From Paraspadella gotoi (lineage: Eukaryota > Animalia > Chaetognatha): a stretch of 64,000 bases of DNA. The stretch spans positions 8,257,523 to 8,321,522 of the forward strand of contig CM119264.1 of assembly GCA_051294375.1 (NCBI GenBank), in the 5' to 3' direction. Below, piece after piece: positions 12,548 to 64,000 of the stretch. The position numbers were made by a program, and so were the translations under genes. The notes under the pieces are model-generated. The model searched no databases. It worked only from the letters and a program-made list of their open reading frames with translations, and was not told the DNA's origin. The stretch's first letter is position 1. Every line of letters begins with the position of its first letter.

Positions 12548-20451
<7,904 letters not shown>

Positions 20452-31187: not shown

Positions 31188-31276
<89 letters not shown>

Positions 31277-31338: not shown

Positions 31339-31419
<81 letters not shown>

Positions 31420-37400: not shown

Positions 37401-40400
37401 TCATTATCGGTAATTAATTAATTAGTTAATTAAAATTTCAGAGCTATTTCAAGATGGAGAAGCATATCTAAATTTTTAACTTACTATATCGCACACTTTT
37501 ATAAAAATTCATAATAATTTTTATTTAAAAAAAAAGGTAAGTCCCAGCCAAAACTATAAAGCGTAGTAGTTTTTATATTATTTAATTATTAATATTAATT
37601 TTTTCAAGTTAATTATTTAATTAATATGCAATTAATTAATTAATTTGATCAAAAATTTTGCTTTGTTGATTAATTAATTGATTAATTTATTGATTAATTA
37701 GTTGACTAATATGATTAATTAACTATTAATTTTTTTATTAATTAATTACATCTTGAATTTACATTTAAAATAAAAAGAACAAGAAGCATAATCAATTAGT
37801 GAAACAGGTTCTTTGTTTTTTCCATTTAAAACTTATTTCCACTCAAACGATTCCATCGAAACTTGATTTTCCAGTTTAATCACACCCAATTTCTACCCAA
37901 ATACCAAAATTTCAAGTTATATATATATATTATATATATATATATTATATATAATTATATTAATCCGTTCCATTAGGATTGTACCCACGTAGGATTGCGC
38001 CCAGAAAATTGGCGCCCACAGCATGCCCACACTTATAATTCACCGCAGATTGTGCCCATGTGGGCGCAATTCTACGTGGGCGGAATCCTACAGGGCGGAA
38101 TCCCATGTGGGCGCAATCTTCCGTGGGCGGAATACTATGGGTGCAATTGTATGTGGGCGCAATCTACGTGGGTGCAATCCAAGGGGCGCAATTTTACCGG
38201 GGCCCAATATACGTGGGTACAATCCTGCTACCACCATATAATTAATATGAATCATCACCCCAACTTGAGAAAAATGTTTTTCGCTTTTTTTTTGTATTCG
38301 AATTATGACTATGACATCCTTTTAGGCTTTTCTCTTTCAATAATATCTCAATATCTTGAATAATATAGGTGTATGTAAATATCAAAGAATAAAGAATTGT
38401 AAGTGTAAATTTAATAGGTAAGAGTTTTTTAATAATTTTTGTGAGATTAGATAATTACAATTTTTCATTTTTTATTTTTAACTAGCTGTCATAAAATTGA
38501 GGTGTTGACACCTCTCTGGTCGAGGGAGTCTCAAGGAATTGGCGTCTCGCCTGAGTTTTAGTTTTGTACGTGTTTAAAAAAATGATTTTGGTTTGCTCTC
38601 ACATAATTTTATATTTTTACAGATACGAAGAAGACATTGTCCCCATGGGCTTGACTTCCCCTGCTTTTCGCTCAGGCGAGGATGAGAGAGTTGCTGGGGC
38701 CCTCATTCGCCAAACTTCCTTGGGAATCGAGGGTTCTGGCCACTCCTCACCAAAGGAGGCCTTCGGTCGGAGGCGGTAAGCCAATGACAATGGGAAGACT
38801 AGTGTTCCGATAACGGTTATTAACGGTTAATTATAATTTTTAACTTAACCGTTAATGGTATTATTTTAACAGTTAAATTCGGTAATTTTTCAAATACGAT
38901 TTTGATATTATTTGTTAGGAAATTCTTGATTTTTTGAAAGAAAAGTATTTTTTTCCTGTCCTCTCTTATTCTCCTCTCCTTTCTCACCATATTTTCCCCT
39001 TCTCTCTCTTCTCCATTTTTTCAATGTTTTTTTTTTTTATTATCATCCAATCTTTTTTCTATCCTAATCTCTCTATTCCTTTCTATCCCCTAACTTTATA
39101 CCCTTCTTTTCTTCTCTCTTTTCCCTCCTTCTTTCCCCCTTTCTTTTCTCTTCTTTTTTCTGCCCCTTCCAGTATTTTTTTTACTTTTCTCCTCCCAATT
39201 TTTTTTTCTAGTTTTTCCTTTCAACTAATTTTTATGCATTTACATCTTAGAAAAAAAAGTTTGAATTAATTGACAATACGATTTATTTTCAGATGAAAAC
39301 GTACATGTTTCGGCGTTTTTTACCAAGCCTTCTTCAGCGTCAATTTAGTTAGTGAAAATATTAGACAGATTTTGTGTAGAAGAAGAGAGAGAGAGAGGAG
39401 AGAGGGCCAAAGTATCTCTGTTCTCTCTCTCCCCATCTTCTATACAAATTTCTATCTAATAATTTCACAATCTAAAATGACGCTGAAGAAGGCTTATAAA
39501 AATCTTAAAACAATAGGATCGAGCCTCCCTTCAATGATAACCAAATATTGATGCGATGAATAACCAATGATTGATGCGATGATAACCAAATATTGATGCG
39601 ATGATAACCAATAATTGATGCGATGATAACCCAATGATCGATGTGATGATAACCAAATGATTGAAGTGATAAAAACCAATGTTTTATTCTATGATAGTCA
39701 TTCATTGATGTGATGATAATCATTCGAGTGTTACGATGATTGTCATTCATTGATGCGATGATAGTCATTCATTGACGCAATGAATCATTCATCATAAAAT
39801 AAAACAAACAATGCGTGTATGAGTGAAAAAGAGGGAGAGAGAGAGAGAAAGAAAGAGAGAGAGAAAGAAAGAGAATAAATCCACGAAATCTCGGGATGTA
39901 ATATTTGGGATTTTGCATTGAGAAAAAGCTCGGAATATAATGGCAATAATAAAAGTTTATAAAAGGAAAAAAATAATCAAAAAAAAAAATTTTTCCAAAA
40001 AAAACGATCACGCAAAGAGATCGTACAGAGAGAGAGAGAGAGACAGAAAGAGAGAGACAGACAGAGACAGAGCTGGACAGTCGCTGGAAGGAGCTGAACA
40101 GTCACGGCAGACCTGAACTCGTTTTTTAAAGGTTCAGAAAAGGCAGCAACTGACAAAAATAGGAAGAAAAAAATCTATATATAATTAAAGAAATAAAATG
40201 AAAGGGAAAAAAAATGTTACAATTGTTTACAATTGAACATTTTACAATTTTTTTTAATCATAGCTTGTAAAAAGATTTTATTTTTATTTATATTAAAATA
40301 AGATGTAGCTTTCTCATTTAAAAAGTTCTTTTGATTTCACGTGTTTTTTATTAATTCAAAGATTTGTTTATGAATTTTATCTTCCAATATTATTTACCTG

Positions 40401-41870
40401 CAATATGTAAATTAGATTAATCATTTCTATATACTAATTTGGATATCATAATGAGTTACTATATCTCATTTGCATATTGCAGTCAATCATAATGAGTGGA
40501 AATTTTAAAACAAAAAATACTTGAATCCAAATGTAATAATGAAAAATTTCAGAGCTATTTCAAGATGAGAAGCCATATGGCATATCTAAATTTTTTAACT
40601 TACTATATGATCGCACACTTTTATGAAAAAATTCATTTGGTAATTGAATATATAATTTTCATTTAAAAAAAAGGTAAGTCCCAAGCCAAACTATAAAAGC
40701 GTAAGTAGTTTTTATAAAAAAATGCGTGACGCTGCCGACGACACGACGACGACGACACGACGACTCGGCACAAAGAAGCTCGACCCGAATCAATTTTGAG
40801 CCTGAACCCGGCTTCGCCGGTAGGCTCGATAAATAGCCGAAACATGTACGTTTTTATCTGAAACGTCTACAACTCGTAAAATCTTGATCTCAGTTCATAG
40901 ATTCGTGAATATGGTCGTTAAGTCGTTGACAAATTCGATGTTCGACTCGGATAAAAGTCATATGATTTGAATCAAGTCTTATCGAACCACGTTTTTTAGG
41001 AATCCCCGTAGCATGAAGCTCACTCTCTCAGATACGAAAGATGGGTATTGGAAACTGCATCGCAACCGCGCGCAATCGTGATTACGAGAAAAACAATGGC
41101 ATGCGCACCAATCGTAAGGGGATTTCATGAAAAGTGAGGGATTCATGAGCGAATGAGGATGATGATAAGGATGAAGGAGGAGGAGATCCCGAGGGATTTT
41201 GGCATTGGAGGGGGCGGTGACGCGGGGGTAAACCAAAGGCGGTGAGGGGGTGGCACGGCGAAGAAGGGAGACTCAGACTGATCCTTTGTTAATCTTTGTT
41301 TTGACTTTCTTTCTTTCTTTCTTTTCTTTATCTCAAAATTTTCAAACATCTGGGACTCCTTCACTTCACTTCACCGCACCGCACTCGGTCGTCATCAACA
41401 TCGTCAACGATCATAAAAATGAACACCACATCCATGTCTCTTTTCCCTTTTTTTTGCTTTTTGCATGGGGTTGGCTGGCGTCGTGGACCCACCAAAAAGG
41501 TCCATTTTTTTTACTACTAGGTAAATGATTTTTTTTTCGTTTGAAAAAAAAAATCTCGAATATAAACCTTTCAATCTATTTTATTTTTCATCTTCAATAA
41601 TAAAATGGGCAACGACGACGACAACGAGGGCGACAACCCCATGGACCACCATTTCATAAGAACATCTTCGCCGGCAACAAGAACAAAAACAAGATTTTCG
41701 ATGGCAGCACCAGCAATGGCACAACAACAGCAAGAACAACAACTCCGTTTGCAACCAATAATCGAATCAACTGCATCAGTGCTTAATGATAAACAATAAT
41801 AAATTAATCAATATACATTAATTATTAAATTAAAAAAAATTGTTTCAATATTTGCGTATAAGACAACGAC
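30858..41870 (+). repeat. Second, indel-rich copy of ~19222-30840 (5' IQCA1 exons, whole ASB gene, hammerhead at ~39296-39342)
   Basis: Collinear near-identity starting at acattatttaccacttcgattttg (19222 vs 30858) and ending at atatttgcgtata.gacaacgac; frameshifting single-base indels throughout. Confidence 0.92.
32388..37261 (+). pseudogene. Frameshifted duplicate of the ASB gene (probably a sequencing-error copy)
   Basis: All ASB exons are present in order but with many 1-nt indels. Confidence 0.6.
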
Positions 41871-42345
41871 TTTCAATTCAAAGAACCACAACAAAGATAN
41901 NNNNNNNNNNNNNNNNNNNNNNNNGAATCTTCCACATCCACAAGGTGATTTAATGATAAACAATTAATAAATTAATCAATAAATAAATTAATACATTAAT
42001 TATTTAATTATAAAAAATTGTTTTTAATATCTGCATATAGGGAAAAGTCTCCAGCAGTCCCAAGAAACACAACAACAACAACAAGACACTCAAATGTAGA
42101 GCCTTCTACATCAACATCCACAAGGTGATTCAATAATAAACAATTAATAAATTAATCAAATAAATAAATCAATTATTTAATTATGTAAATAAGTAAGTAA
42201 ACAAAATTATTTTTTCAACTTACAGGTTGAAAACAAGCCAAACAATGAGAACAACAACAACAATGGCGGCATCAGACACAACCCAAGAGACAAACACATC
42301 AGACATAAAGTGATTTAATGATAAACAAATTAATAAATTAATTAA
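41605..42345 (+). other. Possible low-complexity Asn/Thr/Asp-rich gene built from repeated exon-intron units (first exon also at 30570-30743)
   Basis: Short C/A-rich segments are each followed by a similar intron-like start (gtgatttaatgataaacaattaataaattaatc at about 41945, 42125, 42310) and preceded by ag acceptors. Confidence 0.35.
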
Positions 42346-45300
42346 GGAAATACAAATAAAAAAAATGTTTTTCAATTTTCAATTTTTTTTTTCAGTCNNN
42401 NNNNNNNNNNNNNNNNNNNNNNTCTCGATTCAATTATCAATCTACCGAAACATTCGTCAATTTCCGATAGTTTGGAAGTGTGAGAAAACCTCGATCTTGA
42501 TCCAAAAAAACCCTATTATGGTTATTTCATCATTTTTCATCTTTTTTGAAATTCACAAAAAAGTTTGTGTGAAACTTTAACATCTAATTTTTCCAAATAT
42601 TTTCAAGGCTTGTGCATTTGAGCTTTGAGCAAGATATTTGTAGTATTAATCTCCAATTTTCGATACGTTTGTTTTATTAAATTGAATGTTTTGAATTAAG
42701 TTTTTGATATTTTTAGAGATAGATATGGTTCTATGACAGTCATAAAGGTACGGAGAGTTCTATGACAAGTTTCATTGATGCATATGGATTACCTCACCTC
42801 TCCCAAAATATTAATGAGTTCTTTTCAAGATTTTGTTTGACTGATCTATACTCGGCACCATCTATCTTTTAAAAAGACAATTATTTAAATTGAAATCTTA
42901 TATAAAAACAAAAAACTTTAAAAAACTTAATTATTAAAAAACTAAAAAAAAGCCCATCTTAAAATAAAATACAAACTAAAACAAAATAAAAATAAGGGCT
43001 GGATGAACAAGGGGCGCAAATTATAACATGTAAAGAAATAATTCTGGGTAAAACATGTAAAAACATTTGCATAATCTGGGATATATGTAAAATGCTATCT
43101 ATATCTGGAATATGAAGTAAAAAACAATATTCAATATTCTGGTAAATATTTCAGTAGGATAAAGAAAATGGTTAATTTTTCAATAATTCTTGCAGACATA
43201 TATGAGATGTAACATTATCTCTCAAAATAATGAAAAATTAGAGAAGAATGTGTCCGTGCAAAAAAGAAAAATACAATGCAAAAAAGAAAATTACAATGCA
43301 AAAAGAAAAATACAATTGCAAAAGAAAAAATACACGCAAAAGAAAAAGCCAAAAGAACATCAGAAATTTGTTATGGCTATTACTAAGACTATAAGACACA
43401 AATTTTAGAGAAAATGTGCTCAACACAAACGCTTTTAATTCGAAAATACGCAATAAAAAAAAATAAAAGAACATTTGTGCTCTACCCTGTATAAATTATT
43501 ATAATATTCATATACATTTACAATTAGATTAAAAATTATATATTTAGGGTTAGTTTAGGGGGACAGGGTGAATAAATGTAAATATTTAATCTAAATGTAA
43601 ATGTATATTTAAAATTGAGAAAAAAACGATCAGAGAGCAATGTTTTCAGCTTCAGAATAAAGAAGGAAGTGGAAAGAGGTAAGAGGGATAGGGAATGCAT
43701 TACTATTAAAAAAAAAAAAAAAGTAATGGTGGATTCAAAAAACTCATTCGAGAGAAAAATGTGATATAACATGATACTCGTGGTAAAATACTTGTGTCGG
43801 TCAAAAAGTAAAAAAAATATTATCCAACAAATTACAAGATTTATCCATTGATGAAGTAATACTTTTTTACTTTCTTTTCTTCTTTCTTTACTTGGGTCAA
43901 AGCTTTATCCAATTGATGGTAAATTATAAGGGAATTTATTTAATCCGTTTAATCAATTAAAAATTTTAATTTTCCCTGTTAAAAATCATTCTAGAATCTT
44001 TTTTTGTTTTTTTCGATCATTAGGATCAAAACTGTCTGGCAAATTTGCTAAATACGTTTTTATTTCTGGATAAATAATTGGATAAATCTTGTCTTATGAG
44101 TAAATAGAAAAACAACTAAAATAAAAAAAAACCCCTTATTTTATTCTTATTCGCTCACCTTAACAAAAGTAAAAATAAATAAAAAAACCCCTCTAACCTA
44201 AACCCAATCCGCCCGCCAAACTCATCCTCCCCACCTCTTCCTCCTCGAAAACGTGGCCCAACGGGCGACGGCGGTCGTCGGACTCCGCCTCCGCCACGCC
44301 GTCCGCCGCCACAGGCTTTGCGTTGCCTCCGCCGCCTCGCGACGCCGCCGCTCCCGCGCTCTCCCCGCCGCCGCTTCGCCCTTTGATAGTGACGAGGAGG
44401 ACGAGAAGAGGAGGAAGACGGCGGCGCCCTCCGACTCCCGCTTGAGATGAGATGCTGTGGAGTAAAACAATTTAAAGTTTATGAGAGAATTTAAACTGAA
44501 AAACGAGAATGGAAAAGGAAGGGACAAGGAAAGAGCAAAAACGTAAGCCATAGAGAGGTAATAGAGAGTAAAGAGGAGTATGGGTAGGGAATGAAGAAAA
44601 AGAATGAAGAATGAGTTAAGGAGAAATGAGAAAGAATCATTATCATCTCGATTGACGCGGTTTATACTTATTTTTAACCAGGGTAAACTTTACACACGAA
44701 CTCGATGAAGCTTACTTAATCGAATTTATCCGATCTCCGCGCTCACCTCCGGTCTCGTCGCCGCCTCCGCCTTCGCCGTCCGTTTTTAGAGAAACAAAAG
44801 TAATTGTATTTAGAATCAATTAAAAAAATATTTAATTTATCTTGTACACATAAAAAAAATATTAGTAAAATTCTTTACAAGATGACGCATGTCGGCACGC
44901 ACAATGACCAAGACGAAAAGCAACGATCCGATAAACGCGCTGACATAAAATAAATATAAAAAGGAATTGGTTAGTAAAACGAAAATTGACAACTGAACAC
45001 TACGTTCCTTACTGGAATCAGATCCCGTTTGGTAAAATAATTTGAAAACCACCATTGCGTGGTTGGATTCCAAGCTCTGTAGATAGTTTGGTTTTCAAAG
45101 TATTAGATAAATATTTTTCTATACACTTACTAGTTATAGTTAACTTACTGTCTGTGCGTGTTGAGTGACCGGCGTCGGACTTGGCGCTCCCTCTTGTCGC
45201 CGTTTATACCTGTCTTCGTGGTCGTTGGTCGGACTTGTCTTCGTCGTTGTCCTCGGTCTCCCATTCCTTGTATCATTGGCGCTTTCCGCTCACAGGTTTT

Positions 45301-45689: not shown

Positions 45690-46650
45690 TCGAGGACCGA
45701 AGAGAGCACTTTTGCGAAATGGTGTCGAGATAAAACAAAGATCATTAAAGAGGTTGGTTTCGACCAGTTTTCAATTTTTTTTAAGAGAGGAAAAAATTAC
45801 GATTGGAGAAATAATATTTCGATTTTTTAACAGTACGACGGAAAGATGTTCATTCCCTATTTTCCTACATTACGATTGGAAAAGATGGAAACGGACCCCT
45901 GCAGAAATAGCATACGGAATGAGATAGATAGATAGATATGATAGATAGAAGGAGAGGCACAAGAGAGAGATGTGAGAAAGAGGAGAGAGTGGAGAGCTCA
46001 ATATCTATTGCCAAATGTAAACCTTTGGTCTCGCCGCCCAAAGCATCAACCCAATTATGAGGAAGAAGTCCGACTCTTCTCTCTCCTTTTCTCTTTCTCT
46101 CTTCTCTTCTCTCTCTCTCTCTCTCCTTCTCTCTCTCTCTCTCTCTCTCTTCTCTCTGTCTTCTCTCCCTCTTCTTCTTTCCTCTTCTGTACCTATTGAC
46201 CCTCGAATTGAATAAAAAAGGCATAACCGAATGAGGATTGCGAACATACAAAAATCTACTCTACTTTAAAACTGCACAATGCCTGGGGCAGCTATTGGCC
46301 ATATATTGCATCATGGATGTTCTCATATTAATGTCACTTATGATGCGTTCAGACAACTTTGTCACGGATATATGAAAATAGATCCTTTGTACTATTGACC
46401 ATTACCATCCTATGGAGGTAAGATACATGAATATTTACTAGATCGTACTTAACTCTATCATACTTTCTACATTTTTTATCTTCGGCCTCATGTTAAGGTT
46501 TTCGGAGTAGAAAATATTCTGTGAGCGAACAAGAATCGCAGCATTTATTACGCCTTTACGAATGTATCAGAATGGTTTTTCGTTGTAATACCGTAGTGGA
46601 AACGAGATCATAACGAATGCAGAGGATTGAACAGAGAATAGTCAAAAAAT
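45690..46650 (+). pseudogene. Degraded internal PolB fragment (inverted twin at ~52300-53010)
   Basis: Matches about 61635-62320 including the first intron (gtaagatac); interrupted by a GA/TC-rich insert at about 45920-46195. Confidence 0.75.
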
Positions 46651-49109
46651 GTTCGGGATATTGTGACAATCGGGTCGGGATAAGTGGGGATCAAAAAAAA
46701 GAACAAATAAAAAATTAAACGATCTTTTGGGGGGGCAGAAGTGGAAATGGGGGCGTTGTGGGGTGCGGACTCACTGGGGTTGGGAGGTCAAAATCACTGG
46801 CCCAGTGAGGAAGGTGGCAAATGCCAATTTTGCCTTCTTTTAACGACGAAGACTGGTCTCCGTCGTCTAAACTGAAATGTTTTTTTAAAAAATTCCTCCT
46901 TTTCCAAGGGATTAACTTATCACGATCCTCCACCGAATCTCGATTATCTTCGATTTGCGGTGGTGTAAGTCTAATTCCTCTGGAGGTTTTTTTCGTTTTG
47001 TTAAAAAGTTCGCGAGTTTTTTGTTCTTTTCATCCGATTTCTTCCTTCAATTTTTTTCTTTTGTTCTTTCAAATTTATTGTTCTTGTCTCGCGGTAGCGA
47101 GTCTAAGACGCAGTAACGAGCATGTTACTGCGTTCAGCGTCTTTCGATATAGATCACAACCGGTTGATCTGCGGTGCTTGGTTTTCCGACAAAAGGGGCT
47201 CCCAGCCCCCTTTGTCGTTTCCGTGTCGCCGCCGCTTGCGACCGCCACCAAGTTCGTGGATGGTTTGTCGCGCGAATAATTGTTGCCGCGACAGATGTCG
47301 CGGTGATGTGATAGAGGGTGGTGTGATTTTTTTGTGAACGCCCTCGGCGGCCGCCAGCTTGTAGTCGCAACGCTGGCGGGAGCGGCGAGGACGGATTTTT
47401 GTTGACTAGTCTCTGTCTTTTTATATATTAAACAATTTGACATAAGCAAAATAAATGGTGGGCATCCATTTGAAGATCGAGGAAAAAACAAAGCGAGAAC
47501 GGTAAAGAGAGAATACAATTTGGGATGGTAGGAAACAAGGATGAAGAATCGGAGGACTTGGTCGGGGATAAACCGGGGATCAAAGTTGGGATAAAATTTT
47601 GAAAAATGAAAAAACGGAGAATCAAAAAGGATAGACGAGAAAAGAGCAAAAAGCGTAAAGCGAGCGATAGGTAGAGATAATGCATGCGGGGATAGGTGGG
47701 GACAAGGGTGAGAAAATTGGGGAATCGGGTCGGGGATAAGTGAACATTAAAAAGGGAAATGACGAATAACGAGGATGGAATAATAAACTAAAACTACGAT
47801 ATATGTACATGGGGGTGGGGACTCACTGGGTCGGGAGGTAAAATCATGACCCCAGTGAGGAAGTGGCAAATGCAATTTGCCCACATTTTTTAACTGACGA
47901 GACTCTGGTCTCCGTCGCTAAACCATTAAGGTTTTTATAATTTCATCCTTTTCCAGGAGGAAGGTGTCCCGATCCCTCCACCGCGATCTCAATAATTTTC
48001 GATTTGCGGTGGAGGAAGTCTAATTCCTCCTGGAGCGAAATTTTCATTTTTTTGAAAGTATTTCAGTTTTTCTCCTTTCCTTCAGTTCTGTTTTTTAATT
48101 TTTCGTTTCTGTTTTTAAATTGATTTGCTCCTGCCTCGCACTTGCCGAGTCTCAGGCGCAGTAACGAGCAAGTTACTGCGCAGTGTCTTTCGATACAGAT
48201 CAACCGGCTACCGGTTGGATCTGTGGTGCTTGGGGTGACAAAGAGGCTCCACGCCACTTTGTTTTGTTCGCGTCCGCCGCCGCTTGCGACGGCACCAAGT
48301 GGTGCGATCGGTTGTCCGGCGGCGTAAAAAATCTTGGTTATGAGGATAACGTGGGAGGTGGGGTAGGCTTCGGTGTAGGGGGTTTGGGTTGAGGATTGAC
48401 CTCGGCGTCGACGTGAAGATTGACCTCGGCGGCCGCCAGCTTGTGCTCGCAGTGTGCTGGCGGAGCGACGAGGTCGGGTTTTGGTTGTGCATAATTTCTC
48501 CTCCGTTTGAAAATAAGACAGATTTTACATAAGCAAAATGGATCGTGGTCTTTTTCCATTTTGCTTATATAGTTTTCTGATTAGGGAAAAAAAGATTCGA
48601 AATTTATTAAAGGAGTAGGATTAGTTTCGAAATACTAACAATAAAATAAACTAGCGCGTCGAGTAGCCCACAAATTATTGAGGTTCGTTTATTTCATACA
48701 CTTTTTCTAAGATACTTTAAGACGATAATTTCGAGCGCTAAAATGCGAATATGATGCAATGAGGTCCGCAAGTACTCGCAAAATCATTTGTATACAAAAA
48801 TCGTTATAAAAAATTTCATTCAAAATTTTTTTTTTTCTTTTTCTTTTTTCAAGTAATTCGCAATGAGGATTAAGCAAGGAGAATTTCTCAAGAATCAAAA
48901 TAAGTGAGAGACCTCTTTCTTTTAAAAAAACCCGACCAATGATTGCCTCGTCGGTTTGAGGCATCCATTGGCTATGAAAATCGAAAAATCTGGGGGATCG
49001 CCCGGCAAGCGATCCGCGGGGAAACGTTCCTAAATAGAAACGAGAACATTGAGAATCCGTAAGAAAGAATCTTTATCGATAAAGAGAGAATTCATGTTTC
49101 TTTTTTTTT

Positions 49110-50030
49110 TTTTAATAATCCTAAACTTAGTTCGCGATTATAATTTAGGAGCAAATTGACGCTATATTCGGCGTACACTAATATTATTAACGAAGGGTTA
49201 TCGAAGAATTTTTATAGTTTTAATTCTAATCTCGAACTACAGGTCTGTCGAACATGTGTGGTCTTCGGTAAAGACTGAACCTTCCCAGTATCGAGATAAT
49301 AAAATGTTAATCTTTCACGTATTCGTCGTAACTTATAGGGCACGGTATGTAGTATTAAAGAAATGTGAAACTAAAGTATAATAAGCTCTTGATAATTTCC
49401 ATTTGTAAAAGTTTAAGTTTTGAATGCCGTTTTTTTCCGGGCTTTTTACTCCGTCCAAACTCAAAGAGATCGATTCCAAATCGAAATGGTTAAAATTCAA
49501 ACAGAGATTTGGCGATGTCCCGGAGAAACTGACTTTGTTTACGCGGATTATTACCGTCTCTGGACGATTAGTTTTTGATAAAATTAAATTTTCTATATAG
49601 GACGCTCTTATGACCGCTAGGGTATTACAGTGGGGTCGAACCATAGAAAACCGGGTAGGCATCATTATTCCTCCTTTTCGGTTATTTTTTTCTCAATGTT
49701 GAGCTTTAAAGATGGTAACATAATAATTTTTAATTGAGGCAATGCAAAGACTTACTGCTGCATGCAAATATATTATTAATTAAAATTTTTTTTAAAATGT
49801 TGAATTATGAAAAAAAATACCTGTTTCCTTCGAAATGGTGTCAGCAATTTCATATAAATTGTACAATTATAATTTCAATTCGTGAGAATTTTTGATTGCC
49901 TGAATTCTAAGGTTAAGGAATGAATTTCCCACTAAAAATTATTGATCCCGTCCTGAAGTTTCGCATCCCTCGCACCCTATGGCACGATAGGGTGCTTTGA
50001 TATATAGATCATCAGGTCCAAATATGAAGA
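49110..50030 (-). CDS. Polinton-type major capsid protein (double jelly-roll), C-terminal half, frameshifted
   Basis: ENLILSKTNRPETVII..VSFSG...LNFNHFDLESISLSLDG...P...F...RAYYTL and terminal SRLEL...LIILVYAEYSVNLLLNYNRE follow the Polinton PY/MCP pattern (NPFNFxHF, IVYAEF). Candidate intron at about 49758-49820. Confidence 0.6.
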
Positions 50031-53000
50031 CCTTATATTATGAGTGTCCCTGATAGGGCTTAATCCGTCGTCTGCGTTTGTCGTTGCTTGTCCTGTCCTC
50101 GCCGGGAATTTGTTTTACTAGATTTTTTAATTGCTTATGATAAAAGTAAAATAATTACAATCAAAACGATTAAGGCGTTTGATGTTGCTATTAATCTTTT
50201 CATGTTATTCCCGACGAGGCGTCAGGTAGGCGGGTGTTCTTGTGCACCAAAGGAGGCCTTCGTCGGAGGCGGAAACGCCAATGACAAGAATGGGGAGGAC
50301 GAGGACAACGACCACGAAGACAAGGACAACGACCACGAAGACAAGGACAACGAAGACAAGGACAACGGCGACTCCGGCTCCTCAACGGCAGAAGTAAGCT
50401 AACTCATAACTAAGTATGTGTATTAGAAGAATATTTATCTAATACTTAAAGAGAGAGGATTTCACGTCGACGCCGAGGTCATCTCACCAAAACCCTACAA
50501 CGCGAAGGCTACCGCACTTCCCCACGTTATCCTGCAATCAACAGCCAAGATTTTTAACGCCGCCGCGACAAGCGATCGCACCAACTGGTGCCGGTTCGCA
50601 AGCGGCGGCGGACGGCGAAAACACAAAGTGGGGCTGGAGCCTCTTTGTCCACCCAGCATACAGGATAAGCCGGTAAGCGCGGTTGGATCTGTATGCGAGG
50701 AAGACAGTGGCGCAGTCACTTGGCTCGTTTACTGCGCTGAGACTCGCAAGTGGCGAGGCAAGAGCAAATCAATTTAAAACCACAAAACGAAAAATTAAAA
50801 AGCAGAACTGGAGGAAAAGGAGGAAAAAACTGAAATACTTTCAAAAAAATGAAATTCGCTCCAGGAGGAATTAGACTTCCTGCCACGCGAAATCGAAAAT
50901 TATTGAAGATCGCGGTGGAGGTCGGGACACCTTCCTCTGGAAAGGATGAAATTAATAAAAACTTTATTTTAAGCGAACGGAGACAGAGTCTTCGTCGTTA
51001 AAAATGTGGCAAAATTGCATTTGCCACGTTCTGACTGGGGTCACGTGATTTTTACCTCCCGAGCCCCAGTGAGTCCCCCCCCATGTACATATATCCGTAG
51101 TTTATTTTTATTCGGCATCTCGTTATTGTTCGTCATTTTTCCGCTTTTTTAATGTTCACTTAATCCCCGGACCGCGATTCCGGCCAATTTTCTGCAGCCC
51201 TTTGTTCCCCACCTATCGCATGCCAATATCTCTACGCTATCGCTGCGCTTTAGCTTTTTGGCTCTTTTCTCGTCTATCTTTTCTGGATTCTCCGTTTTTC
51301 GTCGAATTTTTTCAAAATTTTTTATCCCGACCCACTTGATCCCCGTTTATTCCGCCGACCAAGTCCTCCGATTCTCTTCGATCCTTGTTTCCTAGCCAAT
51401 GCCAATTGTTATTTCTCTCCTTTAACGCGTTCTCTCGCTTTGTTTTTTTTCGCCTCGATTCTTCAAATGGAAGCCGGCACCCATTCATTTTGCTTATGTC
51501 AATGTGTTTAATATATATAAAGAAGAGATTATGTCAACAAAATCCGTCTCGCACTCCCGCCAGCATTGGCGACTACAAGCTGGCGGCCAGCCGAGGGCGT
51601 TCATCAAAAAAATCACACACCGGCTGCATCACATCACCACCGGCGAGCATTGGTCGCGGCAACATTATTACGGCGCGACACCCATCGCACCCACTTGGTG
51701 GGGTCGCGAAGGCGGCGGCGACCACGGGAAGCGACAAAGGGGGCTGGAGCCCGCTTTTGTCGGAAAAGCCAGCACCGGCAGATGCCACCGGTTCGGATCT
51801 ATATCGAAAGGACAGCTGACGCAGTTAACATGGCTCGTTACTGCGTCTTGAGCTCGCTACGCCGGAGACAAGAACAATTAAATTTGAAAGAACAAAGAAA
51901 AAATTGAAGGAAGAAAATCGATGAAAGAACAAAAAACTCGAACTTTTTAACAAAACGAAGAAAACGCCTCCAGGAGGAATTAGACTTCCTCCACGCAAAT
52001 CGAAGATAATCGAGATTGCGGTGGAGGATCGTGATATTATCGCTTGGAAAAGGAGGAATTTTTAAAAACATTTCCAGTTTTAGCGACGGAGAACCAAGTC
52101 TTCGTGTTAAAGAAGGTGGCAAATTGCATTGTGCACCTGTCGCTCACTGGGGTCAGTGATTTTGACACTTTCCCAACCCCAGTGAGTCCGCCACCCACAC
52201 CGCCCCCATTTCCACTTCTGCCCACCCCAAAAGATCGTTTAATTTTTTATTTGTCCTCTTTTTTTTTTATCCACTTATCCCGGAACCCGATTGCTCAATT
52301 TCCCCAGAACATTTTTGACTATGTCTCGTTCAATCCATCTGGGCATTCGTTATTGAATCTCGTTTCCACTACGGTAATTACAAGCGAAAACCACTTCTGA
52401 TTACATTTCGTAAAGGCGTAATAAATGTGCGATTCTTGTTCGGCTCAACAGATATTTCTACTCCGCAGAACTTTAACATGACGGCGAAGCTAAAAATGTG
52501 TAAACGTAATGATAAGCTTAAGTAACGCATCTAGGTAAATATTCCATGTATCTTACCTCCATGGGATGGTTAATGTCAGATAGTAACGAAAGGATTATTT
52601 CATAATATCCGTGACAAAGTTGTCTGAACGCATCATAAGTGACATTATATGAGAACATCCATGATGCAATATATGGCCAATAGCTGACGCCAGGCATTGT
52701 GTTTTAAAGTAGAGTAAATCTTTTTAGTATGTTGTAATCCTCTTCGGTTATGCCTTTTTTATTCACTTCGTCCGTAAAATGCTAATTTGCCCAAGGAAGA
52801 GTCCGGTTCTCTCAATCTTTCCATGCGTAAGTAGGCAATAGGGAAATGACATCTTTCCGTCGATAATTAAATCGAAATATTTCTCATCGTAATGTTTTCT
52901 TAAAAAATTGAAAACTGGTTCGAACACCTCTTTATGATTTTTTTTATCTCGACAACCTTTCGCAAAAGTGCCTCTCCTTCGGTCTGCATCGTCGTAGAGA

Positions 53001-56000
53001 CAATCTTACAATTAAAACTCGTAACAATCTTTTTTACTAGCCTTAAAAAGATTGTGTAAACTCCATGAGAAATCGATAACTGTCGCTGTAGGTTTAAATT
53101 TTACATATTTTGTAACAAGTAAATTCAATTTATTGCATATTTTCTGCTTTCCGCGATCAAGTTTTCCTCCAGCGTCGCGCGCCTTCGTCCTTCTCATGTC
53201 ACTATCGGATACATATACATTTACATTTAGATTAAATATTTTATATTTATTAACGCCGGTCCCCTACGCATAAACCCTAAATAGTATAATATTTAATCTA
53301 ATTGCAAAAACTGTGATGCGAACGGCCAATGATGAACAAGCGATGGGGAAGACGAGGACACGAGCGAAGACAAGTCCGGCCAACGACCACGAGACAAGGA
53401 CAACCGGCGACAATAGCGAGACGCACATTCCCAGGACCTCCGCTCCTCAACGGCAGAAGTAAGGTTAACTCATAACTAGTTAAGTGTATTAGAGAATATT
53501 TGTATCTAATACTTTGAAAAACAAACTATCTACATGAGGCTTGGAAATCAACCACGCAAATGTGGTTTGCAATTATTTACCACGGGATGCTGATTCAGTA
53601 GACGTAGTGGTATCAGTTGTCATATTTTCGTTTTTTACTAACAATTCTTTTTTTATTTANNNNNNNNNNNNNNNNNNNNNNNNNTTTATGTCAGCGCGTT
53701 TTATTCGGATCCGTCGCCTTCGTCATCGTCATCGGCGCCGTCTCCGACATCGTCGTCTCCTTTGTAAGAATTTACTCTATTTTTTTATGTGTACAAGAGT
53801 ACAATTAAATTATTTTTTAATTGATTCTAAATACAATTATACTTTTGTTTCTCTAGAAACGGGACGGCGAAGGCGGAGGCGGCGATGAAACCGGAGGCGG
53901 GAGCGGCGGAGATGGATAATTCGATTAAGTAAGTTCATCGAGTTTGTTGTGTAAAGTTTACTGGGTTAAAAATAAGTATAAACGCATCATGCGAGATGAT
54001 AATGATTTTTCTCATTTCTCCTTAACCTCATTCCTCAATTATTTTTTCTTCATTCCCTACCCATACTCCTCTTTACTCTCTNNNNNNNNNNNNNNNNNNN
54101 NNNNNNGCGCCAAACTAAGCCAATGGATGATGGGGTCTTTTTCCATTTTTGCTTATATAGTTTTTGGTATGAGGGAAAAAAAGATTTCGAAAATTATATT
54201 TAATAGATTTAGACTAGGAAATTAGATTCGAAAGTACATAACAAAATAAAATTAAACTAGCGCGCGTAGTACCACAAAATTTATGAGGTTTAGTTTATTT
54301 CATCACTTGTTCAAGATATTCTTTTAAGCATCGTAATTTCGAGCGCTAAATAATACGAATATGCTATGCCCAATGAAGGGTCCGCAAGCTAGCCGCAAAC
54401 ATCATTTTTTGTAAACAAAAAATCGTTAAGTAAAAAATTTTCATTCAAAATTTTTTTTTTCTTTTTTACTTTTTTCAAGAGTTTCGCAAGTAGGATGGAA
54501 GCGATAAGGGATGGAAGTGGGTTCCGTAAGAGAATCAAAAAAGTTTTTGAGAGACCCCTCTTTCTTTTAAAAAAAATGCCGACCACATTGATGGGGAAAT
54601 GGCACAAATACAGCGAGCAACCATTGATCGCCTCTTCGTTTGAGGCACATCCCCAATTTGTGGCTCATGAAAATCGGAGAAAAAAAAAGAAAGAAAAAAT
54701 GGGAATAGGTTACAGGGGGGTGGGGGCGGGTCGGGGCGGGGGGATCGGCCCCTTGGGTGGAGATAGATGCTGTGGAGTAAAACAAAATTTAAAGTTTAAC
54801 GAGAGTTAAAACTTGAGAAAAAACGGAGAATGGAAAAAAGCGACAAGGAAAGAGCAAAAACGTAAAGCCATAGAGAGCGAATAGAGTGTACAGCATCTAT
54901 CTCCAAGCGGGAGTCGGGAGCGGCGCCGCTGTCTTCCTCCTCTTCTTCGTCCTCCTCGTCACCCTCAAAGTGGCGAAGCGGCGGCGGNNNNNNNNNNNNN
55001 NNNNNNNNNNNNNNNNNNNNNNNNNNNNNNNNNNNNNNNNNNNNNNNNNNNNNNNNNNNNNNNNNNNNNNNNNNNNNNNNNNNNNNNNNNNNNNNNNNNN
55101 NNNNNNNNNNNNNNNNNNNNNNNNNNNNNNNNNNNNNNNNNNNNNNNNNNNNNNNNNNNNNNNNNNNNNNNNNNNNNNNNNNNNNNNNNNNNNNNNNNNN
55201 NNNNNNNNNNNNNNNNNNNNNNNNNNNNNNNNNNNNNNNNNNNNNNNNNNNNNNNNNNNNNNNNNNNNNNNNNNNNNNNNNNNNNNNNNNNNNNNNNNNN
55301 NNNNNNNNNTCGAGGAGGAAGAGGGTGGGGAGGATGAGGTTTGGGCGGCGGATTGGGTTTAGGGTTAGAAGGGGTTTTTTTATTTTATTTTACTTTTGTT
55401 TAAGGGGTAGAGGGGATAAGATTAAAATAAGAGGGGGTTTTTTTTATTTTAGTTAGTTTTTCTATTTATCCAAGATCCAGTATTTATCCAATTATTTATC
55501 CAAGAAATAAATATTTAGCAAATTTGCAGACATTAAAGATCTAATGATCGAAAAAAACAAAACAAGATTCTAGAATGATTTTTAACAAAGGGAAATAAAA
55601 TTATTATTTGATTAAAACGGATTAAATAAATTACCTGATAAATTTACCATCAATTGGAAAGCTTTGAAAAGTAAGAAAGTGAGAAGAAAGTAAGAAAAGT
55701 ATTACTTCATCAAATTAATAACATCTTGTAATTGTTGGAGTAATATTTTTTTTACTTTCTTGACCGACCAAGTAGTATTTACCACGAGGTATCATGTTAT
55801 ATCCACATTTTTCTCTCGAAATGAGTTTTTTTGAATACCACCATTACTTTTTTTTTTTTTAATAGTTAATGCCATTCCCTTTCCCTCTTACCTCTTTCCA
55901 CTTTCCTTATTCCTTATTGCTGAAGCTGAAAACAATTGCTCTCTGATCGTTTTTTCTCAATTTTAAATATACATTTACATTTAGATTAAATATTTTATAT

Positions 56001-57443
56001 TTATTAACTGTCCCCTAACCCTAACCCTAAATATATAATTTTTAATCTAATTGTAAATGTATATGTATATATGTATATATATTTATACAGGGTAGAGCAC
56101 AAATGTTCTTTTATTTTTGTTTATTTGCGTATTTTCGAATTAAAAAGCGTTGTTGTTGTTGAGCACATTTTCTCTAAAATTTTGTGTCTTATTAGTCTTA
56201 GTATAGCATAACAAATTTCTGATGTTCTTTTGCTTTTTCTTTTTGCGTTGTATTTTTTCTTTTTGCATTGTATTTTTTTTTTCATTGTATTTTTCTTTTT
56301 TGCATTGTATTTTTCTTTTTTGCACGGACACATTCTTCTCTTAATTTTTCATTATTCTTGCGAGATAATGTTTTACATCTCATATTATGTCTGCAAGAAT
56401 ATTGAAAAATTAAACATTTTCTTTATCTACTTGAAAATATTTACCCAGAATATTGAATATTGTTTTTACATGTCATATTTACCCAAGATTATTGCAAATT
56501 GTTTTTACATGTCATATTTACCCAAGATTATTGCAAATTGTTTTTTACATGTTATATTTACCCAAGAATTATTTTTTACATGTTATATGTTTTGCGCGCA
56601 AAAATTGTTCATCCAGCCCTTATTTTTAATTTTGTTTTAGTTTTTATTTTAATTTTAAGAATGGGCTTTTTTTTAGTTTTTTTAATAATTAAGTTTTTTA
56701 AAGTTTTTTGTTTTAAAATAAAGATTTCAAATTGTCTTTTTAAAAAGATAGATGGTGACGAGTATAGAATAAGTTCAAACAAAAGATCTTGAGAAAGAAC
56801 CTCATTAATATTTGGGAGAGAGTGAGGTAATTCATATGCATATCAATGAAACTGTCATAGAACTCTCCGTACCTTTTATGACCTGTCATAGACACATCAT
56901 ATTCTCATCTCTGACAGTTGATACAAACGTTCANNNNNNNNNNNNNNNNNNNNNNNNNNNNNNNNNNNNNNNNNNNNNNNNNNNNNNNNNNNNNNNNNNN
57001 NNNNNNNNNNNNNNNNNNNNNNNNNNNNNNNNNAAAGATTTCAGGTTTCAGTTTAGATTCAAGTGGCCACATTCTTACGGAAATTCTCCTTTGCTTAATC
57101 CTCACTTTGCGAAATACTTGAAAAAAGAAAAAGAAAAAAAAAAAATTTTTGATTGAAATTTGTATAACGATTTTTTGGTTTACAAAATGATTTTCGGCGG
57201 TACTTGCGCACCTCATTGCATCATATTCGCATTATTTAGCGCTCGAAATATGATCTTAAAGATATCTTAGAAAAAGTGTACTGAATAAACGAACCTCATA
57301 ATTTGTGGTACTACTGTACGCCCGCTAGGGTTTATTATCTGGTTCAGTACTCTCTCACCAAACCTCCAATCCCTACTCCCCTCTCCTACATAACATCTCC
57401 GGACACTCTTTTTTTTTCCCTAATCAGAAACTATATAAGCAAA

Positions 57444-58270
57444 ATGGAAAAAGACCACGATCCATTTTGCTTATGTAAAATTTGTATTTTCTTCAAACAG
57501 AAAATATGTTGAAGAAAAACCGACCTCTTCGCTCCCGCCAGCACTCGAGAGCAAAAGCTGGCGGCCGCCGAGGTCAATCTTCACGCCACTCCCTACGCCG
57601 AGGTCAATCCTCAACCCAAACCCTACGCCGAGGTCAATCCTCACGCCAAAGCCTACGCCGAGATCAATCTTCACACCAAACCCTACCCCACTCCCCACGT
57701 CACCCTCAATCGGCCCAAGATTTTTTACGCCGCCGCGACAACCGATCGCACCAACTTGGTGCCGGTCGCAAGCGGCGGCGGACGCGAAGACAAAGGGGGC
57801 TGGAGCCCCTTTTGTCACCCCAAGGTCCACAGATCCAACCGGTAACCCGGTTGGATCTCTATCGAAAAACACTGACGCAGTAACGTCTTCGTTACTGCGT
57901 CTTAGACTCGCAAGTGCGAGACAGGAGCAAAATTATCTCCGAACTCAAAACTCAAACTTAAAAAGGAAATAAACGAAAAAGAGGAAAAACTAAGATTTTT
58001 CAAAGACCATGAGAAATCTCTCCAGGAGGATTTAGACTTCCTCCACCGCAAATCAAAGATTATCGAGATTGCGGTGGAGGATCGGGACACCTTCCTGGAA
58101 AAGGATGAAATGTTAAAAACTTTTAAATTTAGCGACGGAGACAGAGTCTTCGTCGTTAAAAAAAGGTGGCAAAATTGCATTTGCCACCTTCCTCACTGGG
58201 CTCAGTGATTTCGACCTCCCGATCCCAGTGAGCCCCCCCCCCGTCCCTTCCACCCCCCCTCCCCCCTGTA
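57444..58270 (+). CDS. Small intron-containing element gene with 10-aa repeats and a coiled coil (paralogs/copies at ~46700-47470, ~47810-48559, ~50460-52250)
   Basis: TATA (aaactatataagc) just upstream; MEKDHDPFCL then a gt...cag intron; repeats YAEVNPQPKP (30-bp units at 57566-57690); SLLRLRLA.ARQEQ...LQEELDFLHRKSKIIEIAVEDRD recoverable across frameshifts. 3' end approximate. Confidence 0.45.
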
Positions 58271-58840: not shown

Positions 58841-59452
58841 ATGTTCAGCGATGGGACATTTCATTTGTCCGAAAAATGTCGCATAAATTTAATAAACTCG
58901 TTATATTCTTACTTCGTGATTGTTGCCAAGGGAGGTGCGTCGTGCGCCTGTTCTCGAATCTCTCTGTCGTTGGGGGAGTGGCGTAGTCTCGCGTCGGCGT
59001 TGGACAACCTGGAGGCGGAATTGGAATCGTTAGAGAATCGATTAAAGAAACCAGAACTCGGGCTGGAACCGAAAATTCGTTTTCTCTCTCATCAAATCTC
59101 CATCGCTGTTCACGTGAATAACGTTCGCGGCAAACTGTCGCCGGTCGTTTCTCTCTGCTTTCTCGATCAAGAAGGAGCCAAGGGCGCCTGCAGAACGCAA
59201 GATTCTGGCGTTTCTCTGACTCCGAGCGAATTTCGTGCCTTGAAATTCCTCTCTAGTTCGATCACTCGTCACATTTCGGAAAACGCGATTCGAACCTTCG
59301 TGGTGCGATCGGAAAACCGCAAGAACGTGGTCTCGGACATTTTGCAGATTCTCGAGTCGTTCGTCGAAGGCAAGTCGTCCTTCGGCTTGCGACTGAATCT
59401 GGCTCTCATTAATCAGCTCGAAGAGAATGATCCCAAAGTAGATGCAGATTGA
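58841..59452 (+). CDS. 203-aa protein with two PC4-like (ssDNA-binding) repeats
   Basis: Clean ATG-to-stop ORF downstream of TATA (58734-58748); motifs RISLSLGEWRSL and SGVSLTPSEFRAL resemble the PC4 GISL...W signature; lies directly upstream of PolB. Confidence 0.6.
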   Translation: MFSDGTFHLSEKCRINLINSLYSYFVIVAKGGASCACSRISLSLGEWRSLASALDNLEAELESLENRLKKPELGLEPKIRFLSHQISIAVHVNNVRGKLSPVVSLCFLDQEGAKGACRTQDSGVSLTPSEFRALKFLSSSITRHISENAIRTFVVRSENRKNVVSDILQILESFVEGKSSFGLRLNLALINQLEENDPKVDAD

Positions 59453-59517: not shown

Positions 59518-62500
59518 ATGCCATCGCTGAAATCAGAATCTCATACGAAAGACATTTTCGCCTATCATCGCTATTATGCAAATGGGTTTTTTTGCATACG
59601 ACCAACATCTTCGTCTATCCATAGGATTTTTTTTTTGCATATGACACGGATCACTGCTTTTTTCAGCNNNNNNNNNNNNNNNNNNNNNNNNNNNNNNNNN
59701 NNNNNNNNNNNNNNNNNNNNNNNNNNNNNNNNNNNNNNNNNNNNNNNNNNNNNNNNNNNNNNNNNNNAAGATGAAAATGATGAAATAACCATAATAGGGT
59801 TTTTTTTTGATCAAATATCGAGGGTTCTTCACGAATCTTCCAACATATCGGAAATTTTGGACGAATGTTTCGGTAGATTGATAATTGAAATCGAGGACAA
59901 GACGACCACCGGTTCGAATCTCGTTTTTTTAGAAATAGAAAAGACAGATTTGACCATTTTAAAGATTAGTTCGGCCTTTAACGTGGGTTGTTATCAAAGT
60001 TCGGAACCGGAACTGAGATCAAAACGCGCCACCATCAATTTACCCTCGACAAAGACCCAAGATGATTGCGTCAAAATGTCAATTTTGGCTTGTTTATTTC
60101 ACACCGTAGTGATAAACCCGAGCAGGCGGTCTTGCTACGAACGATATATCGAGAAAATAAATATGGGAACCTTGAAAAATCCGTTGACGATAAATGATAT
60201 TTCGACTTTGGAAACCCTAAACCCAGATTTGAGCATTAACATTTACCAATATACTAGGAAAAAAACAAAAATGAAAAAAAATGGTCCCGCCTCATTTTTT
60301 TTCCATTTAGAATTTCGGGGAAAAATAATTTACAGGGAATAAAAATATGCAATTTGCTCTTGTTACCCAAAAAAGAAATGGAGGAAAGGCGACATTGCGT
60401 TAGCGTGATCAATTTAAGTAGACTCGTGACGTCACAATACTCTCGTCACAAAGGATCTGCTTTCGTTTGTTTAAATTGTCTTTGTTGTTGTCGATCTCAG
60501 TTTGTTTTGGAGAGACATAGGAGACTTTGCGATGAGAAGAATATCAAACAAAATATTTGTTTTCCTCTCAAAGGAACTAAATTAAAGTTTGAAAAATACT
60601 ATGCCAAATTTTACCAGGATGCGGTTATTTATGCAGATTTTGAAACTCAGACGGAAAGGAGAAATTTCGTCGAACCTCTTCCAGATCCGGAATTAACCTT
60701 TGTTCCGGAAAAAATAAAAACAAAATATCCTTGGTGTCGCTTAAAGAGCCATTTGAATCATTTAGAAAAAAATAAAGGATGTAAAAGTTGCTCATTCGCT
60801 AAGCCATGCGTTAAAATATCTAAAAATAGTGAAATATTGGCCGAATTAAAACCCATAGCCTTTTGTTACATAGTTTCTACCACTTTCGATCATCCCGATT
60901 ACGATATTCCTAAATATTACGTGGGATTAGATGCGGGAATAAAATTCGTAGAAATGATTCGCGAAGAGATGATTAGATTAAACGAGATTCTCAATAAAAA
61001 CGAAAATATGATCATGACGGAGCAGCAAGAATTTGAGTTTCAAAACTCTACTCATTGTCACGTTTGCGGAAAACCGTTTTTAAAAGGAAATGACAAGTCG
61101 GAAATGATTAAAACTAGGGATCATAATCATATTACCGGGTTGTATAGGGGTAGTGCTCATCAAGCTTGCAACCTGGCTTACGTGAACCCGAATCGCATCT
61201 CTTTGTTATTTCACAATACCCAAAAGTTCGATGGTCATTTATTGCTAACTTCTATAGCCGAAAAAAATGCCAATTATGCCGTAAAGACCATAGCTAATTG
61301 CATTCCTAAAAGCACTCAAGAGTTTATTACTTTCGAAATCATTTTCAATTGTGATTTTTGTAAAGATAAGAAAGCGAAGGGAAAAGATCCCGAATCGAGC
61401 GACGAGAGTTCGAGCGACGATGACGACGACGATAGCGATGATAGCGACGATGAGAAAGACGAAGGCGGTGAGCTGGAAAGGAAAACTTGATCGCGGAAAG
61501 AGAAAATATGAATAAATTGAATTGTACTTGTTACAAAATATGTAAAATTAAACTACAGGACAGTTATCGATTTCTCATCGGAGTTTACACAATCTTTTAA
61601 TGGCTAGTAAAAAGATTGTTACAGTTTAATTGTAAAGATTGTCTCTACGACGATGAACGAAGAGAGGCACTTTTGCGAAAGGTGTCGAGAAAAAAAAATC
61701 CTAAAGAGGTGTTCGAACCAGTTTTCAATTTTTTGAGAGAAAATTACGATGAGAAATATTTCGATTTAATTATCGACGGAAAGATGTCATTTCCCTATTC
61801 CTACATTACGATGAAAGATTGAGAGAACCGGACCTTCCTTGCAAATTAGCATTTTACGACGAATTGAATAAAAAAGGCATAACCGAAGAGGATTACGAAC
61901 ATACTAAAAAGATTTATCTACTTTAAAACTCAATGCTTGGGTCAGCTATTGGCCGTATATTGCATCATGGATGTTCTCATATTAATGTCGCTTATGGATG
62001 CGTTCAGACAACTTTGTCACGGATATTACGAAATAGATCCTTTGTACTATCTGACATTACCATCCATGAGGTAAAATACACGAATATTTTTACTGGATCG
62101 TACTTACTTAACTTATCATACTTTACTACTTTTTAGCTTCGCCGTCATGTTAAAGTTTTCGGGAGTAGAAATATCTCTGTTGAGCGAACAAGAATCGCAC
62201 ATTTATTACGCCTTTACGAAATGTATCAGAGGTGGTTTTTCGGGTTGTAATTACCGTAGTGGAAACCGCGATCAATAACGAATGCGGAGGAATTGACGAA
62301 GAATAGTCAAAAATGTTCGTTCAATTTATATTACGATTTTACAAACTTGTAAGTAATGATCCGAGCTCAAAACCGTAATAATAATAATAATAAAATAAAA
62401 AATATAAATACAGATACGGTTATTGTCAAACCGAATATTTTCCCACGGGCGACTTCTATTCCTTTTCCGAACCGGAGTGCCAAAACTTGTTGACCGAGAT

Positions 62501-62887
62501 TTTGGAAAAGCGAATTTATGACACGTGGACAGGTTTCGAAAAAAAAGGGTAAGCGTTCTTCGATGAAATATTGTTTTTAAGTTTTTAACCTTTTCTCTCG
62601 ATTTTCTTTCTTTCGTTTGTGTTTTATTTTTTTCTTCTTACAGATTTATATTAGAAATTAAATATACTATTCCGGAGAAAGTAAAGATATTTTATAGCGA
62701 TTATCCTTTATTAACTACTAAGAGAAAAGTTTTAAAGTCGGAACTGAGTTTTTTACAATTAGAACTGATTGAAAAATATAAACAAAATATCGACGCATCT
62801 CCCAGACTGATTGCCGATTTATCGGACGGAGATCATTACTTTATACATTATATGAATCTTAAATTAGTTTTAAGCTTAGGATACGAA
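59518..62887 (+). CDS. Polinton-type protein-primed DNA polymerase B, intron-containing, frameshifted and cut at an N-gap
   Basis: N-terminal SKRATINL...SILACL...LNPDLSINIY; C2H2 finger CLNC...HRRLC; ExoI VIYADFE; endonuclease-VII-like CHVC...RDHNHITGLYRGSAHQACNL; ExoII FHNTQKFDGH; FPYSYI; after splicing YEIDPLYYLTLPSMSFAVMLK, CIRGGFS, YYDFTNLYG (motif A) and GFILE...SDYPL. True start uncertain. Confidence 0.9.
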
Positions 62888-62897: not shown

Positions 62898-63700
62898 ACA
62901 CTAATATTATTAATGAAGGGTTATTCAAAGAATTTTTATAGTTTAATTCTAATCTCGAACTACAGGTCTGTCGNNNNNNNNNNNNNNNNNNNNNNNNNNN
63001 NNNNNNNNNNNNNNNNNNNNNNNNNNNNNNNNNNNNNNNNNNNNNNNNNNNNNNNNNNNNNNNNNNNNNNNNNNNNNNNNNNNNNNNNNNNNNNNNNNNN
63101 NNNNNNNNNNNNNNNNNNNNNNNNNNNNNNNNNNNNNNNNNNNNNNNNNNNNNNNNNNNNNNNNNNNNNNAAAGTATAATAAGCTTCTTGATAATTTCCA
63201 TTTGTAAAATTTAAGTTTTGAATGCCGATTCCAAATCGAAATGGTTAAATTCAAACAGAGATCTGGCGATGTCTCCGAGAAACTGACTTTGTTTTACTTG
63301 CGCGATTATTACCGTCTCTGGACGATAGTTTTGATAAAATAAATTTTCTATATAGGCGCTCTTTTGACCGCTGGGTATTACGTGGGGTCGAACCATAGAA
63401 AACCGGGTAGGCATCATTATTCCTCCCTTTTCGGTTATTTTTTCTCAATGTTGAGCTTTAAAGATGGTAACATAATAATTTTTAATTGAGGCAATGCAAA
63501 GACTTACTGCTGCATGCAAAATATTATTAATTAAATTTTTTTTAAATTTGGAATTATGAAAAAAAATACCTGTTCCTTCAAATGGTGTCAGCTAATTCAT
63601 TAATAAGATGACAATATAATTTCAATTCGTGAGAATTTTTGATTTGCTCTGACTTCTAAGGTTAGGATATGAATTCCTACTAAATTTAGTTGATCCCGTC
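62898..63700 (-). CDS. Second copy of the major-capsid-like gene, convergent with PolB
   Basis: Near-identical to about 49175-49960 (MMPTRFSMVRPH, FNHFDLES, LIILV), interrupted by N-gaps and indels. Confidence 0.55.
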
Positions 63701-64000
63701 CGAGTTCGCATCCCTCGCACGCGTAGTGCACATAGGGTGCTGTTGATATGATATAGTCATATAGCTACTGATTTGAGGTCCCCAAATGAAGTATCCGTGT
63801 ATTCTGGGTTGTTGTTACGTTGCTGTTGCATGTCTCGCCCCGGGGAATTTGTGTTTACTAGATTTTTTTAATTGCTTATAGATAAAGAGTAAAATAATTA
63901 CAATCAAAACGCTTAAGGCGTTTTGAATTGTTGCTATTATCATTTTTCAATGTTATTCCGACGAGCGTCAGGTAGGCGGGTGTTCCCGGTGGACTGGAAA

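Follow-up and report, generated by a model that had tools for sequence, protein, structure and literature searches.

Three intron-shaped segments in a Polinton-type PolB gene of the chaetognath Paraspadella gotoi, probably spliced by the host and part of a clade with likely differing intron sites

Animal Mavericks/Polintons (PMC8097293; 10.1101/2022.07.12.499685; adintoviruses in PMC8502044) are described, in the parts of these sources available to us, as encoding a protein-primed PolB with an endonuclease VII-like domain. According to the accessible sections of PMC8097293, intact vertebrate Mavericks have no introns and interruptions are treated as decay, while those of 10.1101/2022.07.12.499685 report intronless core genes in nematode Mavericks, with introns in cargo genes only. 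The excerpts of PMC12166617 describe introners, copies of active intron-making transposons, in eupolintoviral elements of dinoflagellates, and those of PMC10871703 describe crustacean endogenous nimaviruses with intron-containing genes that prokaryotic gene callers missed. No report of spliceosomal introns in the core genes of animal Polintons was found in the accessible literature, although supplements and Repbase entries may differ. Similarly, nothing on core-gene introns was found in the available parts of PMC8502044, PMC10748475, PMC11296320, PMC12220804, 10.64898/2026.10.13.758929, 10.1101/2024.03.25.586562 and 10.1101/2025.02.07.637071.

The stretch analysed here, called the window throughout, comprises 64,000 nucleotides of P. 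gotoi DNA. Like the animal Mavericks, its element combines a protein-primed PolB with an endonuclease VII-like domain, a Maverick-type major capsid protein and a putative adenain-type protease in an animal genome. Unlike the vertebrate and nematode Mavericks, whose core genes are intronless in the sections cited above, its PolB contains three intron-shaped segments (introns 1, 2 and 3), and unlike the full-length Maverick PolBs tested it has a Trp-His-Cys insertion. Since its core gene is not intronless, we regard the element not as a typical member but as a variant with the workings of a Maverick. It resembles the introner-bearing eupolintoviral elements of dinoflagellates (PMC12166617, as far as its accessible text goes) in being Polinton-like with intron-forming insertions in the DNA, but its introns lack mutual likeness and its host is an animal. 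With the crustacean nimaviruses (PMC10871703, same restriction), which belong to another virus group, it shares the integrated animal DNA virus type with intron-containing genes; the genes named there are eukaryote-like ones plus an integrase of Ginger2 type, and the replicative polymerase is not among them. We estimate a probability of roughly 70% that the segments are host-spliced introns in a Polinton-type PolB, gained singly, in a clade whose members differ in their intron sites. The relevant features of the gene are the following.

59768..62887, + strand: partial protein-primed PolB of Polinton type, with N gaps at both bounds and further frame breaks
60258..60303, + strand: PolB frame change located in runs of A and T
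60732..60809, + strand: Trp-His-CxxC-PC insertion after the first exonuclease motif; clade marker, predicted to bind metal
61023..61178, + strand: Endonuclease VII-like Cys/His domain in PolB (Pfam PF02945, E 7e-4, under the curated cut-off)
62071..62136, + strand: putative intron 1, 66 nt, GT-AG, phase 2, profile column 741; donor GTAAAA, acceptor TAG
62349..62413, + strand: putative intron 2, 65 nt, GT-AG, phase 2, profile column 808; donor GTAAGT, acceptor CAG
62549..62643, + strand: putative intron 3, 95 nt, GT-AG, phase 2, profile column 845; donor GTAAGC, acceptor CAG

The assignment to Polinton-type PolB made in the preliminary description is borne out by 108 long homologues (best E 1e-27), with an identity of about 29% to the best full-length relatives. 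PF03175 matches one exon (E 0.002) and motif A is present. The gene breaks off in an N gap at column 924 of the 1232 profile columns; motifs B (column 966) and C lie beyond, and the gap removes the last ~300 residues. The earlier picture of the gene located the three segments correctly and overlooked both this gap and the further frame breaks. A Cys-flanked acidic insert lies at 61360-61490 (+ strand), and its position is shared by an acidic insert in the relatives P0113, P0270 and P0272.

For the profile, 79 homologues of at least 1150 residues were taken from the 108 matches, and the coding pieces were joined with an X at each junction before alignment to it. The exon flanks of all three segments fall on adjacent profile columns without gaps, with one split codon apiece (columns 741, 808 and 845), and in each case the codon is split after its second base. 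None of the 79 full-length homologues has extra residues at the sites of introns 1 and 2; at the site of intron 3, the modal length is found in 73 of the 79, and one homologue is longer by 8 residues. The joined pieces score 126.5 bits, compared to 79.1 bits for the top unspliced frame, and stops occur in all three frames inside each segment. The coordinates and GT-AG ends first proposed are thereby confirmed, as is the claim that removal restores PolB across the junctions while the unspliced frame runs into stops. Two of the three lengths are no multiple of three. Among 39, 36 and 36 nearby frame-open placements of introns 1, 2 and 3, respectively, only the named placement has GT-AG ends; from the local sequence, any one placement would have GT and AG together with a chance of 0.002. 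The position of the segments at colinear GT-AG sites is not due to chance.

Intron 2 lies inside polymerase motif A, four columns past the catalytic Asp (column 804), and intron 1 also interrupts a conserved motif. The statement that all three do so has to be corrected for intron 3, which stands only at the edge of one. The segments have a GC content of 0.22-0.27; of the four flanking exons, three reach 0.38-0.42 and the fourth 0.27. Pyrimidines make up 15, 5 and 17 of the 20 positions near the 3' ends of introns 1, 2 and 3; the 3' end of intron 2 is A-rich and has no pyrimidine tract, while intron 3 has a long one. A branch-like TTAAC is found at -29 in intron 1 and at -59 in intron 3, and none in intron 2; only that of intron 1 is close to the 3' end. 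A length of 65-95 nt would be too short for a group I or group II self-splicing intron. Host introns read in the window measure 55, 59, 69, 71, 73, 79 and 533 nt; the PolB introns are therefore host-like in size, as had been claimed. Taken as they stand in the DNA, introns 1-3 are likely spliceosomal introns that the host cuts out of the element transcript. They share no sequence beyond 9-base matches, and no further copies occur in the rest of the 64-kb window. An introner, with many near-identical intron copies at unrelated sites, was considered and rejected, as the three are unlike one another and do not recur in the 64 kb; their lack of relatedness argues against a recent introner burst.

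The stretch is present in nine listed runs from one organism and three studies, of which four runs were compared; no established RNA run stands among the nine. Intron 1 is bridged by contigs of runs X1 and X8, and a contig of X6 runs into it. For intron 2 there is one bridging X1 contig, and intron 3 is spanned jointly by two X1 contigs that overlap; X5 leaves 62110-62694 uncovered. None of the nine listed joints skips an intron, and the X8 contig retains intron 1, the RNA label of that run being a guess. Contigs break often and differ between runs, as would be expected for several variants. An intron-free minority copy may exist, since contigs drop rare variants and one run may itself be the source of the window.

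These contigs also bear on the frame breaks. At 60258-60303, contigs of X1 and X5, which come from two studies, match the window without gaps; the frame change is a genuine slip carried by the commonest form, or possibly a ribosomal frameshift site. An intron at this place was rejected, as the sole GT there has no fitting acceptor unless a conserved motif is removed. Over 61440-62314, small indels set the short-read contigs apart from the window where its frame is broken, so these breaks are probably assembly errors. Among 40 of the 132 rows of letter differences between contigs and window, five of six differences in 60300-61400 are synonymous (p 0.006), compared to none of three in the N-terminal part of PolB, where one in run X8 makes a stop, and four of ten in a neighbouring PC4-like ORF. 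The copy in the window may itself be dead. Upstream, at 59667, an X1 contig extends 710 letters past the N gap and its loose end opens with GT following a CAG; the missing 5' part of PolB may therefore carry further introns.

Copies of PolB within the window add less to this comparison than first thought. Between 42400 and 58600 lies a tangle of direct and inverted re-reads of the element, 70-89% identical, separated by 25-N spacers and with gap openings about as many as mismatches, a pattern suggestive of gaps filled with raw long reads that fold back. Long inverted matches in the window likewise look like re-reads. Two of the pieces contain PolB.

46204..46655, + strand: PolB re-read of 61860-62319 including intron 1; 87% identical, 26 mismatches, 26 gap openings
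52307..53206, - strand: PolB re-read of 61440-62318 including intron 1; 89% identical, 39 mismatches, 50 gap openings

Intron 1 does recur in both, as had been noted, although the first has no clean intron 1 acceptor. The two form the indel-rich mirror arms of a single inverted duplication, and at some letters they agree with each other against the main copy. They are probably re-reads representing at most one further variant and not independent copies.

The phylogeny suggested as a check in the preliminary description was computed with FastTree on 55 hand-picked sequences (without P0216, P0226, P0028, L087 and L107) and gave a clade of 17 sequences with a support of 0.989. An earlier large tree, built on a poorer alignment than that of the 55 sequences, was poorly resolved and placed the window beside two non-clade proteins. 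By sequence, the window PolB is a member of this clade, which is marked by the Trp-His-CxxC-PC insertion, a marker new here. The best matches of the representative search carry the insertion too, whereas none of the 79 full-length homologues and none of the 59 long PolB ORFs of the fetched loci has it. Fourteen protein clusters belong to the clade.

Clade clusters: P0113, P0114, P0115, P0118, P0120, P0121, P0129, P0141, P0154, P0175, P0216, P0220, P0226 and P0260

All 14 have the same insertion, with 27-36% identity to the window piece, and every one is an incomplete ORF. The expectation that ORF-based virus searches would miss such a lineage agrees with the absence of any full-length cluster, the lineage being visible to them only as fragments. 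None of the 14 extends past column 850, compared to 38 of 135 other matches (Fisher p 0.013); for full length the figures are 0 of 14 and 20 of 135 (p 0.12, not significant alone). In all seven clade clusters with several members, homology is left at the identical residue while the contigs continue. Judged by eye and from protein evidence only, the homology is left at residues that a GT donor could encode in ten of the 14 clusters; the donor-like exits are Gly-Lys, Gly-Glu, Val-Ser and Arg-stop, often with low-complexity tails after them. P0272 runs through a low-complexity insert and then back into the motif. An automatic donor-tail test on all incomplete matches was marginal (11 of 105, p 0.02-0.06). 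The clade clusters break at columns ~522-554, 600, 707 and 810. The window PolB reads through 522-554 and 707, while P0216 and P0220 read through 741 and P0220 also through 808. Clade relatives thus likely carry introns at other sites than the window PolB.

Shared introns were also considered for P0122 (Ephemera danica), P0251 (Paramuricea clavata) and P0216, whose ends coincide with the column of intron 2 or of intron 1. These ends were not counted, as the next codons (Tyr, Trp) easily become stops and, for P0216, the contig barely exceeds the ORF. P0262 and P0263, both of the P0113 cluster, stop at one shared residue within a conserved motif, through which the other members continue; this could reflect an intron in only some close copies, or contig ends. 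Outside the clade, the fragments P0188, P0232, P0249, P0214 and P0185 have donor-like ends at the conserved columns 707, 707, 803, 971 and 742, which hint at introns in other Polinton lines. DNA of clade relatives was found neither in viral contigs (queries P0113, P0281 and alignment A3) nor in metagenome contigs (A3). With a general PolB alignment as query, 31 viral loci and 77 metagenome loci were obtained, in sets that favour intact ORFs (best 80 of 596). PolB was in one or two pieces in 27 of the 31 viral loci and in one piece in 54 of the 77 metagenome loci, which lie outside the clade and showed no clear intron in PolB, with one weak GT-AG candidate in L096.

PolB does not stand alone, and the virus lineage that had been proposed is supported by pieces of a capsid gene and probably a protease gene near it.

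57076..57290, + strand: adenain-type protease piece, broken; second read at 48690-48965, - strand
58841..59452, + strand: PC4-like ORF of 203 aa, preceded by a TATA-like box; product predicted to bind single-stranded DNA
63171..63900, - strand: Maverick-type major capsid protein piece, broken; second read at ~49130-50100
63510..63569, - strand: candidate fourth intron, in the capsid gene; 60 nt, AG/GT..CAG, AT-rich, present in both capsid reads

The capsid piece lies beside PolB only across an N gap. Its part 63441-63232 matches an ORF of L087 with 31% identity over 70 aa (E 5e-5 in 22.7 kb), and a capsid profile run on six frames gave E 3e-6. The reference ORFs, from PolB-bearing loci, are presumed to be capsid genes on the basis of motifs, as Pfam gave no label. 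Searches with the piece in the protein database, Pfam, solved structures and phages returned no match, and those in the atlas only unrelated ones. The two protease reads match each other, and the second weakly matches an ORF of L107 that is a Peptidase_C5 (E 0.001-0.003; broken reads); the piece itself has no Pfam match. The PC4-like ORF has atlas scores of 0.84-0.86 and PF02229 in all ten of its best named matches, one cluster being viral, which is taken as a lead only. Between the protease and PC4-like genes, a broken ORF at 57445-58210 (+ strand) lies behind a TATA-like box; it has short peptide repeats and a charged C-terminal part, with a paralogous module near 46700-47470 and no family found. 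Within the window, where the element is cut by gaps and by the window end, a profile from the fetched loci gave no retroviral-type integrase, no packaging ATPase or minor capsid protein was found, and 41000-64000 contained no AGT-repeat signature of terminal repeats.

In our reading, the element would reside in host chromosomes and be transcribed by host RNA polymerase II, and the host spliceosome would remove introns of the usual host size to give one PolB message. The introns would have been gained singly while the lineage lived in animal genomes, and would persist because only an exact loss is tolerated inside conserved motifs. Intron sites that likely differ across the clade point to repeated gain or turnover over one ancestral set. 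For the wider proposal of an undescribed, widespread and still-mobile clade of animal Polinton viruses, marked by a metal-binding PolB insertion and dependent on the host spliceosome, with introns continually gained and lost in replication and capsid core genes and hidden from ORF callers, which would see first exons only, we see even chances.

The introns could also be real but belong to an immobile, decaying provirus family, gained late in one host, with the lineage pattern an illusion of fragmentary assemblies. The frame change common to two studies, the stop in X8 and the lack of an integrase and termini in the window would suit such decay, and none of the three introns is clearly present in a relative, given that P0216 and P0220 read through 741 and P0220 through 808. 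Three exact, frame-keeping GT-AG insertions, however, would not be selected for in a dead gene, and clade members break at repeated donor-like places while their contigs continue, which makes this account unlikely. Somewhat less likely still is a PolB module domesticated as an ordinary host gene that gained its introns as host genes do. The capsid and protease pieces still adjoin PolB, the frequent breaks in the contigs and their differences from run to run suggest several variants, and a frame change is at odds with a maintained host gene; these points outweigh, in our view, the TATA-like boxes, the host-sized introns, the presence in nine listed runs of one organism and three studies, and the synonymous excess in one part of PolB. 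A pseudogene whose three segments are assembly errors or insertions that stay unspliced is highly improbable, for although the assembly of the window is rich in errors and contains palindromic re-reads, the segments are present in short-read contigs and three of three GTAA donors and YAG acceptors stand exactly at colinear junctions, at a GT-AG chance of 0.002 per placement.

The origin of new spliceosomal introns is an open question, and recent gains are rare in animals. If host-spliced introns of the kind we favour shift their sites within one conserved gene across a clade, that clade would be a compact system for studying this origin, and its elements would be expressed in the nucleus by host machinery. 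Surveys that read interruptions as decay (PMC8097293, in its accessible part) would discard spliced lineages as fossils. The Trp-His-Cys insertion motif offers a handle for collecting the clade from genomes.

Elsewhere in the window, an 11.6-kb tandem duplication (19215-30840 and 30849-41870; 94% identity, more indels than mismatches) is probably an assembly artefact. At 41380-42390 (+ strand), short repeated Gln/Thr-rich exons alternate with near-identical A-rich introns and adjoin an inverted re-read of the start of PolB. A gene for an amiloride-sensitive sodium channel (DEG/ENaC), whose last exon lies at 9202-9423 (+ strand, Pfam E 2e-8), indicates an animal host. The host intron sizes come from two intron-rich host genes at 13000-20300 (- strand) and 22300-25400 (+ strand); by eye, one of these encodes an AAA-type ATPase and the other ankyrin repeats.
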